This document shows positions 24,575-31,631 of a stretch of 64,000 nucleotides of DNA, piece after piece. The DNA lies in NCBI GenBank assembly GCA_963800585.1, contig CAWDBP010000014.1, positions 116,413-180,412 of the forward strand. Reading direction: 5' to 3'. How positions within the stretch are numbered: the stretch's first letter is position 1; every line of letters starts with the position of its first letter. The notes below the pieces were generated by a model that was not told the origin of the DNA, did no database searches, and saw nothing but the letters and a program-made list of their open reading frames with translations. The position numbers and the translations under genes are program-made. Source of the DNA: an uncultured Bacteroidales bacterium. GTDB taxonomy: Bacteria; Bacteroidota; Bacteroidia; Bacteroidales; FEN-979.

Positions 24575-25273
24575 ATGAAAGCTGTCTTTATATCAATCTG
24601 TTTCTATTTCCTATTGTCCTCTGCCTCCTTCTCCCAGGATTCGGTTTATATTCTTCAAAAGAAAGACTTCGATAAATTTAAAAAAGGCTATCTGGTCACC
24701 TACGATAAAGATACACTTAAGGGGCAGATCTATCTGGAATCTTATGAAAAAATATACTTCATTAAGGAGGGAAGCAAAATAAAAAATGCTGCAACCGGGA
24801 AGCTTTCAGATTTACCTTTCTTTCTGGCAGGCGACGGTAATATTAAAGCATTTAACAGGGATGGCTTGTCCTTTGAATTTCAAAACATTTTTCCAAAAAA
24901 CACCCCTGTATTTCTTAATATTATGGAACAAGGACCCATTAATCTTTATCGACTGATATATGATTATGAGGATGCAGGCATGGAAAACGGTGGTTGGATA
25001 AAGCTTTTTGGAATTGCAGGGATTCTTTCCTATGAATTGATAAAACAAAATTCGACACCAGATAAAGTATATGAAAATGCTTACTACGTGCAGAAAGGTC
25101 CGAACACCCCGGTTTATTTTGTACCTGATGGAGAGAAAAAATACAGGGAAGTGGTTTATCCACTAATAAAAGATAATCCAGCCTTTCTTAAGACCCTTGT
25201 TGGTCAATACTTTGATTATCAACATTTAGCCGAGAATATAAAACAATACAACGCCACACTAAAAACCAAATAA
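24575..25273 (+). CDS. hypothetical secreted protein
   Basis: 232-aa ORF with a signal peptide (MKAVFISICFYFLLSSASFSQ). I recognise no family. Confidence 0.55.
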   Translation: MKAVFISICFYFLLSSASFSQDSVYILQKKDFDKFKKGYLVTYDKDTLKGQIYLESYEKIYFIKEGSKIKNAATGKLSDLPFFLAGDGNIKAFNRDGLSFEFQNIFPKNTPVFLNIMEQGPINLYRLIYDYEDAGMENGGWIKLFGIAGILSYELIKQNSTPDKVYENAYYVQKGPNTPVYFVPDGEKKYREVVYPLIKDNPAFLKTLVGQYFDYQHLAENIKQYNATLKTK

Positions 25274-25301
25274 AAAATAAGAAAAACTCACCAGTTCACT
25301 A

Positions 25302-27311
25302 GTTTCCGGGTAGAGCGGATCGTTACCTCCCCGCTCCCCCACAGACCCGGACGAGCAGATTTCCCGCATCCGGTTCCTCAAGTTATGGATTCGCTGCATA
25401 AACAGAGTGAAAGATTTTAGGTTTGGCTAAAACAAAGGTAACCTTTATGAGCGTATTATAGCGATCCCATGTAAAGCCCCTGTTAGAGCGTCTTGAAAGC
25501 CATTTCTTCCAGGTACATGTTACACCCATATAAAATGCACTTAAACTTCGGCTATTGCCTGTAACACCATAGTAACGGTAGTGTCCCAGAAGTTTAGTGT
25601 TTAGCATCTTATATTGGAGAGCTAAGCGCTCATGACAGTTAAATCTGCACCAGTCATTGATCCGGCTTAAACTCCTTTGAAGCCGGTCTTTGGCCGTTTT
25701 CCTCATAACTGTCCAGTACCCTTTCCGGTTTCTGCCCCAATAGTATGTAAAGCCCAGAAAGTTAAACGTTCCACGTTTCCTGTCGTCTTTACTATAACCA
25801 ATGGGCGGTCTTGAGAAGAAAATCAGTTTGGTTTTATCCGGATGAAGCTTTAGCTCGTATCTGGCAAAGCGTTTGGGCAGAACTTTGAAGACCCTCTCGG
25901 CGTCTTCCTTATTCTCAAATCCCAATACACTATCGTCTGCATAGCGTACGATGGTTGCTTTGCCCTTCAATAGGGGTATAATCTCCTCGGCGAACCATTT
26001 GTCCAGCACTTCATGCAGGTAAATGTTGCTCAGCAGAGGTGAGATTACACCGCCCTGCGGGCTGCCTTCATCCTTGTAACTGATAGCTCCTTCTTCCAGA
26101 ACTCCTGCTTTTAACCATTTTCCAATTAATCTTGTGATCACTCCATCTTGCACCCTCTGTTTCAGAAATGACCTTAGGTGTTGATGGTTCATCGTATCGA
26201 AGAACTTTTGGATATCCAGATCGATTACCCAACTTATGTTCTTTGATCCAATCTCCTTCCATAGGTAGTCAACTGCATCATGAGCTGATCTTCCAGGTCT
26301 GAACCCATAGGAGAAATCGAAAAAGTCATTCTCAAAAACTGGTTCCAGCACTTGAAGTACTGCTCGTTGTAAAATACGGTCTTCTATCGTTGGAACGCCT
26401 ATGGGTCGTTGTTCTTTCCCCTTACTCTTGGGAATGTATACACGTTTTACCGGAGGAGCGACATACCTCCCCGATTTAGCACGTTCCAGCAAATCCTCAA
26501 GGTTACTCACGAGGCTTTCCTCATACATCGCCAAAGTTTGGCCATCTACACCTGGACTTGTATCTGGTTTGATCCGCTTGTAAGCTTCCTGCATCCAATC
26601 CATGTCTATGTTGTGATGCAGTGATACCAGTGCTTTGTCCCGGTATTTCTTAGCAATTTCTGCTATTCGATCCTGTTTCGTTGACACATTCATTTGTTCC
26701 TGTGCACACTTTTGTGTTTCTCATTATCGATTCCATAACCCGACGCTCTCCCTTCCCTAATCCCCGGCTCCTTGGGGTATGTTCGCCGGCTTTCAAACGG
26801 TACTATGAAGGCGCTAAGACTGCCTCTGTTCTTCTCCTAACTTCACTCTTCGTTCGTATCGGATACCCCTGACGTGTCTCATCGCTTCGTTTATATCTCA
26901 GGTGAGACGCCTGCGATATACCCGGGCTTAGTTCGACCAGTTGCCCTATTACTGGTTTCTTTTCGTCGGGGAAACAGGAGGCTCTCCCATGTTCCCGTGA
27001 AGCCCTCTTTACATTTGCTCTGTTGTTATACCCCGGACGGATCCTGGCACTCGCCTTAACGTGCTTCAGATACTGTTCCCGCGTTGGTGACAGCGAAAAC
27101 TCCATCAATTGTCTGCCCTTACGAGGCTCGTTTGCACAGCTTTTGTACTCGTTGTCTACGCTTCATGCAAGCATCTCTGCTTACTATGCAAGACTCACTT
27201 CCGGCTGATGGTTAGTCTTTACCGGATAGGATTGATTACCTACTGGGCTTCTTCAAAAGGTTTCAATGAACAACTATATTCCCCTTTTACGGGTTTATCA
27301 TGGCGCAACAC
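25302..27311 (-). mobile_element. group II intron with intron-encoded RT/maturase (boundaries +/- 5 nt)
   Basis: The RT ORF sits in the expected domain IV position, with about 620 nt of 5' RNA (domains I-III). A domain V candidate lies at 25344-25376 (minus: GAACCGGAUGCGG-GAAA-UCUGCUCGUCCGGGUC), followed by a domain VI helix (GAGCGG/CCGCUC) with a bulged A. The 5' end is near GUGUUGCGCC (27311). TCACC octamer units flank it on both sides (25288-25303 and 27312-27326). Confidence 0.8.
25383..26693 (-). CDS. group II intron reverse transcriptase/maturase (no endonuclease domain)
   Basis: 436 aa. RT motifs RPIGVPTIEDRILQRAV, FRPGRSAHDAV and the YADD box (VRYADDSVLGF) are present, plus a maturase domain X (LGFTYYWG..., LLGHYRYYGV). 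The ORF ends without an HNH region. Confidence 0.9.
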   Translation of the reverse strand: MNVSTKQDRIAEIAKKYRDKALVSLHHNIDMDWMQEAYKRIKPDTSPGVDGQTLAMYEESLVSNLEDLLERAKSGRYVAPPVKRVYIPKSKGKEQRPIGVPTIEDRILQRAVLQVLEPVFENDFFDFSYGFRPGRSAHDAVDYLWKEIGSKNISWVIDLDIQKFFDTMNHQHLRSFLKQRVQDGVITRLIGKWLKAGVLEEGAISYKDEGSPQGGVISPLLSNIYLHEVLDKWFAEEIIPLLKGKATIVRYADDSVLGFENKEDAERVFKVLPKRFARYELKLHPDKTKLIFFSRPPIGYSKDDRKRGTFNFLGFTYYWGRNRKGYWTVMRKTAKDRLQRSLSRINDWCRFNCHERLALQYKMLNTKLLGHYRYYGVTGNSRSLSAFYMGVTCTWKKWLSRRSNRGFTWDRYNTLIKVTFVLAKPKIFHSVYAANP

Positions 27312-27326
27312 CAATTCACCAGTTAT

Positions 27327-30300
27327 TTAATATTCCTGCCACGCCTTGATCTCCAGGTCCTCCGGCTTAAGCTTGCAGAAAGCCATTACAAAGACATTCG
27401 CCAGGTTGGCATTGGTGATCAGCGGGATATTGAAGTCGATGGCTGCGCGCCGGATAGTATAATCATTATAAAGTTCATCCTTTGAGAGGTTCTTCGGGAT
27501 ATTTATCACAAGGTCGATCCGGTGTTCTTTCAAGTATTCCATCACATTGGGAGTGGCATCTTCGTCGGGCCAGTGAAGAATGGTGGTGTCAATGCCATTT
27601 TCCAGCAGGAACTCTGCCGTTCCCTTCGTAGCGAAAATATGGAATTGTTTTTCTGCCAACATCTTGCAACCCTCCAGCAGGATGGTCTTGGATTTCACGG
27701 GACCTGATGAGATGAGGATGTTCTTTTCCGGTATCCGGTATCCTACGGAAAGCATTGATTTTAGTACGGCCTCGTAAACGGTGTCGCCAATGCAACCTAC
27801 TTCACCGGTAGAAGCCATATCGACCCCCAGCATCGGGTCGGCCTTTTGAAGCCGCGAGAAGGAAAACTGGGGGGCCTTCACCCCGATATAATCAATATCG
27901 AAGAAGGATTTGTCAGGCTTGTCAAACGGAATGCCAAGCATGACCCGGGTGGCGATATCAATGAAATTTATCTTCAGGACCTTGGAAACGAACGGGAAAC
28001 TGCGTGAAGCCCTCAGGTTGCATTCAATAACTTTAATATCATTGTCCTTGGCAAGAAACTGAATGTTGAAGGGCCCTGATATCTGTAAAGACCTGGCAAT
28101 GTCGCGGCTGATGCGTTTAATACGGCGAACGGTTTCAACATAGATCTTCTGCGGAGGGAAAATAATCGTTGCATCACCTGAATGAACGCCTGCAAACTCG
28201 ATATGCTCGGAGATGGCATAAGCCACAATTTCCCCTTCTTTTGCTACTGCATCGATCTCGATCTCCTTGGCTTCCTGGATAAATTCTGAAACAACAACAG
28301 GGTGGTCCTTGGATACATTTGTTGCCAGCGTAAGAAAATGCTCCAGCTCGCTTTTGTTCGAAACCACGTTCATGGCAGCACCGGAAAGTACATAAGAGGG
28401 ACGGATCAATACGGGAAAGCCAACATGTTCGGTAAAAATAAAAACATCCTCCAATGTCGTAAGTTCCTTCCACCGGGGTTGGTCAATCTCCAGCCGGTCG
28501 AGCATGGAAGAGAATTTATGACGGTCTTCGGCATTGTCAATTGAAACGGGGGATGATCCCAGTACCGGCACGTTTTGCTTGTAAAGCCGCATGGCAAGAT
28601 TGTTTGGTATCTGGCCCCCCATGGAAAGAATGACCCCTTTGGGATTCTCCAGGTCGATGATATCCATCACCCGTTCAAACGAAAGCTCATCAAAATACAG
28701 CCGGTCGCAGATGTCATAATCCGTACTGACAGTTTCCGGATTATAATTGATCATGATCGACCGGTAACCTGCATCCTTCACCGCATTCAGTGTATTAACG
28801 CTGCACCAGTCGAACTCGACAGAGCTCCCGATACGGTAAGCTCCACTGCCAAGAACGATCACCGAACCCCGGTCATCCGGAAAATCAACATCATGTTCAC
28901 TGCCGCTGTACGTGAGGTAGAGGTAGTTGGTTTGTGCAGGATATTCCGCTGCCAGGGTATCAATCTGCCTGACATAGGGAATGATATTTCTTTCTTTCCG
29001 GTATTCCCTGATCTTCAGCATATCCGGTTCAGGATTCTTTACTTCCGATTTGAATACCAGCCGGGCAAGCTGGAAATCGGAAAAGCCTGATCGCTTGGCA
29101 TCCAGGATCAATTCGTCAGGAACATCCCTGATATCATTATAATCTTCAAGGCTTTGCCCCGTGTCGAATATATTTTTCAAACGATAGAGGAACCATTTAT
29201 CGATCCGTGTCAGTTCCCAGATCCGTTCAACTGAATAACCTTCTGCAAAAGCCTGGGCAATGAAAAAGATCCTGACATCCGTTGGATGGGAAAGCTCATT
29301 TTCGAGGTCCCTGGCAAGTAATTCGTGGTTGCCGATCAGGCCATGCATCCCCTGCCCTATCATTCGCAGACCCTTTTGAATGGCCTCTTCAAATGTGCGC
29401 CCGATAGCCATGATCTCACCTACGCTCTTCATGCTCGATCCCAGCTCTTTCGATACACCGACAAACTTGCCCAGGTCCCAGCGCGGGATCTTGCATACGA
29501 TATAATCCAGGGCCGGTTCAAAGCAAGCCGTCGTGGTCCGGGTCACGGAATTCTTCAGTTCATGCAGTCCATATCCCAATGCCAGTTTGGCAGCGACGAA
29601 AGCCAGAGGATATCCCGTAGCCTTGGAGGCAAGCGCTGAAGACCTGGACAGCCGGGCATTCACTTCGATAACCCGGTAGTCTTCCGACTCTGGGTCGAGG
29701 GCGTACTGGATATTGCACTCCCCGATGACGCCCAGATGGCGGATTACCCTGATTGACAACTCACGCAGCTTGTAATATTCAAGGTTGGAAAGGGTTTGCG
29801 AAGGAGCTACTACGATGCTTTCACCGGTATGAATGCCCAAGCGGATCGAAAGTTCTCCATGTTGCATACCGTGATGCAGTTGTCGTGCCGGTCGCGGACG
29901 ACCTCATATTCTATTTCTTTCCAGCCTTTCAATGATTCTTCAACAAGGATCTGGTTGGAATAAGAAAATGCCTTGGCGACGAGCAAGTCGAGATCTTTCT
30001 CGTTGGAACAGAACCCGCTTCCCTGTCCTCCTAATGCAAAGGCAGCCCTTACGATCAGCGGGTAGCCGATCTGCTTCTGCCGCCTTCCTGGCGCTCTCTG
30101 CATTGGTGACTGCCACGCTTCTGGGTGTCCCACCTGGATCTCATCCAGCTTTCTGCAAAAGAGTTCCCTGTCCTCTGTGCTGATGATGGTCTCGACGGGG
30201 GTCCCAAGCACCCTTACCCCATACTTTTCGAAGACACCTGCCCTGTATAAGGAAACCCCGCAGTTGAGCGCGGTCTGCCCGCCGAAAGCAAGCAGCAGCC

Positions 30301-31631
30301 CGTCGGGATTTTCTTTCTTAATAACTTGTTCCGTAAAATAGGGTGTCACAGGCAGAAAATAAACCTTGTCGGCAATCTTTTCGGAGGTTTGGATAGTTGC
30401 GATGTTCGGGTTGATCAGTATAGTCTCAATCCCTTCTTCCTTCAGGGCTTTCAATGCCTGTGAACCGGAATAGTCGAACTCGCCGGCTTCACCGATCTTA
30501 AGCGCCCCTGAACCCAGGATAAGTACTTTATGGATTCCTTCGGTCATTTTCTTTCTCATTTTGAAAGATCTGACAAGATCCATAAAATCATCAAAGAGAA
30601 ACTTGGTATCGGTAGGTCCGCCTGAGGCTTCAGGATGGAACTGCGTCGAGAAAAAAGGATTCTTCTTATGCCGTATTCCTTCGTTGCTTCCATCGTTAAG
30701 GTTAATAAAAAACGGCTCCCAATCCTTTCCAAGGTTCGCGGGATCAACTGCGAATCCATGGTTCTGACTGAAGTAATATACGTCTTCATAGTGCCAAGCA
30801 TAACGGACAGGCTGGTTATATCCCCGGTGTCCATACTTCAGTTTATAGGTGGTGGCCCCTGCAGCAATGGAAAGGAGCTGGTTCCCAAGGCAAATGCCGA
30901 AAATGGGTTTGCCTAGGGTGATGGCATTTTTCAGGATTCCCGATCGTTTCCCTGCAAACCTGGGGATCGCCCGGGTCCATTGGAGATACCAGCCCGTCAT
31001 ATTCATCCTGCGTAAAATCATAATCCCATGGAACCCTGATCACGGTTGCCCCGGTATTCATCAGGCAACGGATGATGTTGTTCTTTACCCCGCAATCAGC
31101 AAGAATGATCTGTGATTCATTGCCGGGGTAAATAATTTTTTCCTTAACGGTGACCTGTGCTACAAGGTTATCTTTATTCGGGTCGTAGAAGTCCACCTCA
31201 TTTTCATCTTTTTGGTATAGCTTCCCTAGCATGGTTCCCTCTTCACGAAGCCGCTTGACAATGGCGCGTGTGTCGATCCCGCTGATCCCAGGGACATCAT
31301 GCTCAAGGAGCCAGTCTGAAAGGTTCTCCAATGCATTCCAGTGGCTGTATTCCGCGGTGTAGCTTGAAATGACAAGTCCTGACACATGGATCCGGTCTGA
31401 CTCGAAAGAAGTTGAAAGATTTTCCTTTATGGCTTTACCCGGTACCCCATAATTCCCGATCAGCGGATAGGTCAGTACAAGAATCTGGCCTTTGTAGGAA
31501 GGATCAGTAAGGCTTTCGGGATAGCCGGTCATGGCAGTGTTGAAAACTACCTCTCCTGAAACGGAACGCAATGCCCCAAAAGGTTTTCCCGTTACGCGGG
31601 TTCCATCATTAAGCAGGAGTTGTGCCACCAA
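27327..31631 (-). pseudogene. carAB: carbamoyl-phosphate synthase, small (CarA) and large (CarB) subunits in one continuous frame; at least 3 frame breaks
   Basis: ORF 30843-31631 is the CarA N-terminus. ORF 29810-31021 carries the CarA GATase ([14 protein letters not shown]) running without a stop into the CarB N-terminus ([25 protein letters not shown]). ORF 27327-29867 is the rest of CarB (846 aa, second ATP-grasp and MGS-like domain). Confidence 0.9.

Follow-up and report, generated by a model that had tools for sequence, protein, structure and literature searches.

A group II intron within a tandem octamer array downstream of carB in an uncultured Bacteroidales bacterium

In a 2015 review, the targets of bacterial group II introns were given as unique homing sites, terminator motifs and attC sites (PMC4424553). 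RmInt1 of Sinorhizobium meliloti (class D, IIB3), the target of which is picked by the exon-binding sites EBS1, EBS2 and EBS3, has a multi-copy natural target, ISRm2011-2, and the replication fork is the presumed source of its priming (PMC4424553). For the group IIE/IIF ribozymes Cl.be.I2, Pe.th.I2 and Ge.ur.I1-1, Nagy et al. (2013) found that splicing does not need the pairing of EBS2 with the intron-binding site IBS2; alternative 5' splice sites can arise where IBS1 words are repeated upstream, as shown in a IIF intron (PMC3753933). Here we describe a group II intron in a 64,000-nt stretch of DNA (the window, that is, the whole stretch analysed) from an uncultured Bacteroidales bacterium (assembly GCA_963800585.1, contig CAWDBP010000014.1), where it lies inside a tandem octamer array behind carB, the gene for the large chain of carbamoyl-phosphate synthase. 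With a probability of about 0.75, we consider it to be an intact, retromobile IIB-like intron for which array sites are picked by the pairing of EBS1 and EBS3 with the octamer, the arrays being used and not created by the intron. The mechanism is ordinary EBS/IBS homing, while dispersed 7-8-nt arrays are an unusual target niche. No bacterial precedent for introns that home to tandem repeats came up in a search of the literature, which is no proof of absence.

The window intron is like RmInt1 in encoding a reverse transcriptase (RT) without an endonuclease (En) domain, whereas the RmInt1 target is an insertion sequence (IS) element and not a tandem repeat of 7-8 nt. Class C (IIC) introns, which lack an EBS2, recognise a DNA hairpin together with 3-4 bp. 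With these introns, which use terminator hairpins and attC, the window intron shares a recurrent and abundant non-coding motif as safe sites, the lack of En and a location past gene ends, but it differs from them in its 6-bp EBS1, its EBS2 loop, its domain I of about 330 nt and the absence of a hairpin at the site. By published description, the IIE/IIF introns are also similar, the window intron having a IIB-like ribozyme of about 690 nt without the open reading frame (ORF), a 5-nt domain V loop (GAAAU) and six bases after the branch A (PMC3753933); its 5' end, UUGCG, is a difference from the ribozymes of Nagy et al. The closest annotated relative is an RF02005-type intron (125 bits) on plasmid pS11L-3 of Bradyrhizobium japonicum (locus L160), the RT of which is 50% identical over 410 residues. 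That intron adjoins an IS66 transposase gene, not a short tandem array, and its record names no class.

The intron occupies window positions 27308-25305 on the minus strand (2,004 nt) and begins 18 nt past the carB stop. A preliminary description, made by reading the sequence, had placed a group II intron inside the octamer array behind carB, and this observation is confirmed, with both domain I and domains V/VI recognised in Rfam. Domain I matched RF02005 (group-II-D1D4-6) at 27235-27021 (118 bits, E 8.5e-33), and domains V/VI matched RF00029 at 25378-25304 with 40.1 bits against a gathering score of 40. In the RNAalifold consensus of 15 relatives, domain I closes at intron nt ~1-330, with compensatory changes in 60 of its 123 pairs, and a comparison of 3' tails showed the bulged branch A25311 to be kept in about 100 relatives. 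The RT/maturase ORF (436 aa, 26693-25383) has an intact YADD; RVT_1 was its only Pfam family, and the NCBIfam equivalog of group II RT/maturases, TIGR04416, scored 357 bits against a cut-off of 300 over residues 33-402. The relatives of this RT in the PDB are group II RTs. The protein has reverse transcriptase and maturase parts without a DNA-binding or endonuclease tail, in agreement with the earlier reading of the RT. When the intron is removed, the ligated exons read AACTGGTG AATTGGTG AACTAGTG AACTGGTG AG, and a continuous four-unit octamer array is regained in phase, again as proposed; without the intron, the spacer between carB and the convergent ORF would measure 49 nt.

The limits of the intron were mapped by covariation among related introns, of which about 125 were gathered from genomes and metagenomes and about 60 were used for this purpose. 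Between EBS1 and exon positions -6 to -1, 88.5% of positions pair, as compared with 42.5% after shuffling (61 distinct intron/site pairs, 52 distinct EBS1), and the register thus fixed sets the 5' splice site at G27309/U27308. Immediately before UUGCGCC, the relatives differ in their base (A, C, G, U), and this base covaries with the EBS1 loop, indicating that it belongs to the exon; relatives starting with G, U or C keep the same EBS1 register. At the other end, a single nucleotide in an internal loop of domain I covaries with the base that follows CCCGGA (U-A, G-C, C-G, A-U), which is the behaviour of EBS3/IBS3. The J2/3 dinucleotide was UU with A as the last intron base in 27 cases, GG or GU with C in 12 and AG with U in 2, the sixth base after the branch A covarying with the first J2/3 base as the gamma/gamma' pair (U-A 27, G-C 12, A-U 2). 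From these two covariations, the intron ends at A25305 and A25304 is exonic. In the genome, TGGTGAACTAGTGA is present 46 times, and its counterpart minus the A is absent.

The intron therefore runs from U27308 (UUGCGCC) to A25305 (CCCGGA). The preliminary description had given the 5' exon exactly (the stop followed by 18 nt ending AATTGGTG) and was right in the A that it had put in brackets at the opening of the 3' exon, but its guess for the start of the intron, GUGUUGCG, has to be replaced by UUGCGCC. In place of the canonical ends, 5' GUGYG and 3' AY, the intron has UUGCG and GA. Many members of the family (window 27308; loci L023-L146) start with U or C and not with the near-universal G, as in UUGCGCC, UCGCGCC and CUGCGCC versus GUGCGCC. 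The 3' end GA rather than AY is found throughout the subfamily of the window intron.

A second copy was found on contig C5 (89582-91585, minus strand), differing at 1 of the 2,004 intron bases, with both ORFs intact and with distinct flanks. EBS1 CACCAA pairs at 6 of 6 positions with UUGGUG at the window copy and at 5 of 6 with CUGGUG at the C5 copy, and EBS3 (U27028) pairs with the final A of TGGTGA, the point of insertion being exactly between the G and the A of one unit. The C5 copy follows ACUGGUG^A at the end of another TGGTGA array, so that the check on a further genomic copy advised in the preliminary description again led to an array. Each of the two copies is found in a convergent spacer, a short way behind the stop of a gene in its own orientation. 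Since they are nearly identical at different loci, they point to recent mobility.

In a number of relatives, the guide loops fit the repeats in which these relatives reside. In the metagenomic relatives L103 and L104, the introns of which are 94% identical to the window intron (RT 97% and 94%), the EBS2 loop reads ACCAC, with seven positions changed relative to the window, and EBS1 reads CACCAC; the EBS2-position loop is thus a hotspot of change between the window intron and L103. Their site is AGTGGTGA-GGTGGTG^A (GTGGTGA-G-GTGGTG), in which successive units serve as IBS2 and IBS1, 8 nt apart. With a distance of about 8 nt between IBS2 and the downstream IBS1, two adjacent repeat units are able to serve both guide pairings, which is the case in L103. 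Two other relatives were located in CGTGA heptamer arrays, L024 (EBS1 CACGUG) in TCGTGA CACGTG^A CGCGTGA CGCGTGA and L122 (EBS1 CACCUG) in GCGTGA CAGGTG^A CGCGTGA. The L024 host (G015, another genus of the same family) carries 119 CGCGTGACGCGTGA sites and 0 TGGTGA pairs. Relatives with EBS1 CGUUGA are in degenerate 7-8-nt units ending in CGA. As a separate observation, the distant relatives L037, L061, L068, L069, L070 and L089 (RT about 55% identical; labelled Vicinamibacterales, Gammaproteobacteria, Pseudomonadota and Spirochaetota) all follow the palindromic word CGTTTCCGCGGRAA, with EBS1 and EBS2 matching, which suggests a widely shared repeated target.

A second intron lineage was detected on contig C11 (locus L159), where two copies (195934-197865 and 198611-200542, minus strand) are 99.8% identical and 2.7 kb apart. 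Its RT is 39% identical to that of the window intron, and its RNA is of the RF02005 type (52.8 bits). The joined exons, ACTCTGTGACTCTG^TGACTTTTT, equal unoccupied ACTCTGTG octamer arrays elsewhere in the genome, and each copy is inserted into an ACTYTGTG octamer array, past which come heptamer arrays of AATCGTA or CGCGTCA. The EBS1 of this lineage was not identified, and no nucleotide-level relatives were found among the fetched loci. In total, 4 of 4 full-length intron copies in the genome, representing two lineages, sit in arrays of 7-8-nt period. A fifth and weaker signal at C15:109048-110896 (minus strand; RF02005 35.6 bits and RF00029 35.9 bits, neither reaching the gathering score) probably marks a decayed intron.

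The arrays themselves are a feature of the host. Within the window, ANTGGTGA occurs 43 times against 10.7 expected, a four-fold excess, and Tandem Repeats Finder (TRF) lists several arrays. In the whole genome (G000; 3.78 Mb, 21 contigs), the 14-mer TGGTGAAYTGGTGA occurs 198 times in 104 arrays, all of them outside credible genes, and in tandem spacers the TGGTGA strand is in the sense of the upstream gene for 37 of 54 arrays. Arrays of 7-8-nt period make up 0.67% of the genome and about 5% of its non-coding DNA. The genome holds 613 such arrays of many unrelated unit families, nearly all intergenic, the commonest units by TRF rows being ACGCGTC (59), AACTGGTG (49), AATTATC (29) and AAATCGT (27). 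The 14-mer was also found 13 to 125 times in 6 of 12 sampled genomes of the same genus and 53 times in G013, of another genus. The intron lineage was not found in the array-bearing genomes G001, G007, G008, G010, G012 and G013, and most array-bearing genomes sampled showed no close relative of the window intron. As arrays are present where the intron lineage was not found, the intron is a user of the arrays and not their maker. Contrary to a link considered in the preliminary description, intron and repeat family do not depend on each other. Directly behind the carB stop, 6 of 10 congeners (L148, L150, L152, L153, L155 and L157) have a different 7-8-nt array, such as some 13 units of ATTACGG, more than 100 bp of GAGGTGA/GAAGTGA, or AATGGCAA; gene-end arrays thus appear to turn over fast in the genus.

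Several observations weigh against the selection of array sites by EBS1 and EBS3. The loop at the EBS2 position, GGGCAGACAAUU, gives at most 3 bp with the flanking octamers at either copy; the idea that EBS1 and EBS2 both pair with octamer units therefore held for EBS1/EBS3 (UUGGUG^A) but not for EBS2, which matches only in L103/L104. A site perfect for EBS2 (7 bp), EBS1 (6 bp) and EBS3, TTGTCTG-G-TTGGTG-A, is empty at C15:148136 (locus L158), where it lies on the plus strand in sense orientation inside a gene for a rhomboid-family protease (ORF 147834-148580); the chance expectation for such a match is about 0.03 before correction for the several patterns tried, and the composite target CTGCC-N-YTGGTGA has 0 sites in the genome. 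An octamer context was found for only 14 of the 740 TTGGTGA sites, and hence EBS1 plus EBS3 alone are no predictor of arrays. For the close subfamily, TRF assigns only 8 of 29 distinct sites to short-period arrays or a place beside them (4 of 49 for distant relatives), and part of the array bias could come from selection against insertions in genes. The arrays had been proposed to act as landing pads; the second copy and the nearest relatives, all in arrays, agree with this, but only 2 of about 198 matching array sites are occupied. Furthermore, no intron-less allele was found, the spacer behind carB not being conserved in 10 same-genus genomes, and no spliced joint was seen in the contigs of RNA-library run X10, which lack cover of the flanks.

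The unmatched EBS2 at both copies, the 98% of TTGGTGA sites outside octamer arrays and the occupancy of about 2/198 would also fit an intron without preference for arrays, transposing at low frequency to any YTGGTG^A, with gene insertions being lost and arrays being the commonest non-coding carriers of this word. Restricted to intergenic sites, the chance of both copies falling in arrays would be about 0.1 by a rough estimate. We judge this explanation unlikely, since the four full-length copies of two unrelated lineages are confined to about 5% of the non-coding DNA, both guide loops fit the repeat in the nearest relative, and the relatives in the other host match the dominant array family of that host; sense-strand insertions in genes may be tolerated if the intron splices, yet none was seen. 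Very improbable, in our view, is an immobile relic, inherited vertically and located in an array by accident. Neither a spliced product nor an empty site was recovered, and the ends lack the canonical 5' G and 3' AY, in line with a relic, but the two copies are 99.95% identical at different loci, the YADD of the RT is intact, U, C or G at position 1 is common in the family with EBS1 pairing conserved, and other sequences stand behind carB in same-genus genomes. We give still less credence to the creation or expansion of arrays by the intron, or by alternative or reverse splicing on repeated IBS1 words. Repeated IBS1 motifs do permit alternative 5' splice sites in a IIF intron (PMC3753933), and one RNA-library contig has a longer 3' exon array; against this stand the tens to more than 100 arrays in genomes where the intron lineage was not found, the many unrelated units among the 613 arrays of G000 and the different arrays behind carB in other species.

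The stretch is present in peat and soil metagenomes of several studies. The DNA contigs of three studies are interrupted at the intron ends; the flanks of both copies are represented among them, but no joint that skips the intron. The X10 contigs contain parts of the intron and the unspliced 3' junction, from which, DNA carry-over being possible, transcription is not established. On one X10 contig (window 25288), the 3' exon array is two ACTGGTGA units longer than in the window; either array length is polymorphic in the natural population or the intron has another insertion site there.

Sequence comparison sets the intron apart from class C, from the RmInt1 type of class D and from class F/g3. 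It is not of the terminator-seeking type (the preliminary description had named terminators among the common targets of En-minus introns), class C being excluded by the 6-bp EBS1, by the EBS2 loop pairing in relatives and by the absence of a hairpin in the 18 nt after the stop. Class D, the RmInt1 type, was rejected on comparison with the pSymA intron, taken as RmInt1 by its size alone (about 1.88 kb): its RT is 36% identical and its RNA belongs to RF01999, while RF02005 finds nothing on pSymA. Class F/g3 was rejected likewise, the RT of Ni.ha.I1 being 35% identical and its RNA being RF02003. By its size, the intron would fit the g2 group of Toro (430-447 aa, 1,970-2,006 nt; Table S2, PMC3552965).

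The coordinates of the intron parts and the adjoining features are collected in Table 1. The carA/carB region (window 29810-31631) reads as overlapping ORFs. ORF 29810-31021, which contains GATase and the first ATP-grasp part of the large chain, shares 58 nt with ORF 27327-29867, for which a frameshift, an error in the assembly or the fusion of carA and carB into one gene could be responsible.

Table 1. Features of the intron locus in the window
Feature	Position	Strand	Basis
carB, 3' part (carbamoyl-phosphate synthase large chain)	27327..29867	-	Pfam CPSase_L_D2/D1/D3 and MGS domains; ORF list; stop TAA 27329-27327
5' exon spacer: two octamer units in the 18 nt behind the stop (27314-27309, IBS1 UUGGUG)	27309..27326	-	Sequence; register fixed by covariation
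Group II intron, 2,004 nt	25305..27308	-	Rfam; second copy; covariation of EBS1/IBS1, EBS3/+1 and gamma/gamma'
Domain I core	27021..27235	-	RF02005; RNAalifold
EBS1 CACCAA, 10-nt loop on 8-bp hairpin	27084..27089	-	Pairs with exon -1 to -6
EBS2-homologous loop GGGCAGACAAUU	27107..27118	-	Located by its pairing in relatives (exon -14 to -8)
EBS3 U, intron nt 281	27028	-	Partner of A25304 (exon +1); in the internal loop under helix GCCUCG/CGGGGU
J2/3 dinucleotide UU; U26817 = gamma	26816..26817	-	Pairs with last intron base A25305
RT/maturase ORF in domain IV, 436 aa	25383..26693	-	RVT_1, TIGR04416
Domains V and VI; domain V loop GAAAU (5 nt); branch A25311 six bases before the 3' splice site	25305..25378	-	RF00029 alignment
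3' exon, remaining octamer array: AACTAGTG AACTGGTG AG	25287..25304	-	Sequence
Convergent 232-aa ORF, no Pfam family	24575..25273	+	ORF list

Under the use of arrays through EBS1/EBS3 pairing, the intron would have entered the spacer at the carB end by reverse splicing, with the site chosen by base pairing of EBS1 CACCAA with UUGGUG and of the EBS3 U with the next A; the same rule may account for the C5 copy after ACUGGUG^A. The intron is presumably transcribed by read-through from upstream carB and would leave the 3' untranslated region by splicing. In reverse splicing into DNA, it would then be guided mainly by EBS1 and EBS3, and the complementary DNA (cDNA) may be primed from strands of the replication fork, as in other En-minus introns (PMC4424553). 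With regard to GC skew, the plus strand is mostly C-rich around one copy (copy A), which would fit a lagging-strand rule, and mixed around the other (copy B), a signal too weak for use. Low occupancy and the unmatched EBS2 suggest that transposition in this strain is inefficient and driven by EBS1. The dispensability of EBS2-IBS2 in IIE/IIF ribozymes and the alternative 5' splice sites at repeated IBS1 words (PMC3753933) are both relevant to an intron that lies within repeats of its own IBS1. As the 7-nt word of IBS1 plus IBS3 is the repeat unit, the approximately 100 non-coding arrays, most of which are downstream of a gene and oriented like it, offer many neutral sites.

More tentatively, and as a possibility for which we claim less than even confidence, gene-end arrays of 7-8 nt may form a distinct natural niche for bacterial group II introns, in which lineages retune EBS1/EBS2 to the dominant array of the host (TGGTGA here, CGCGTGA in G015) and on which at least two unrelated lineages have converged in this genome. 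A dispersed, microsatellite-like target gives the element about 100 neutral sites per genome, and array targeting could explain how En-less introns persist without harm to genes. The family shows that U or C can stand in for the near-universal first G of the intron, and its natural series of EBS1/EBS2 variants, each fitted to another repeat, is useful for rules of retargeting. The finding ties the spread of introns to the little-studied gene-end repeats of Prolixibacteraceae and related Bacteroidota.

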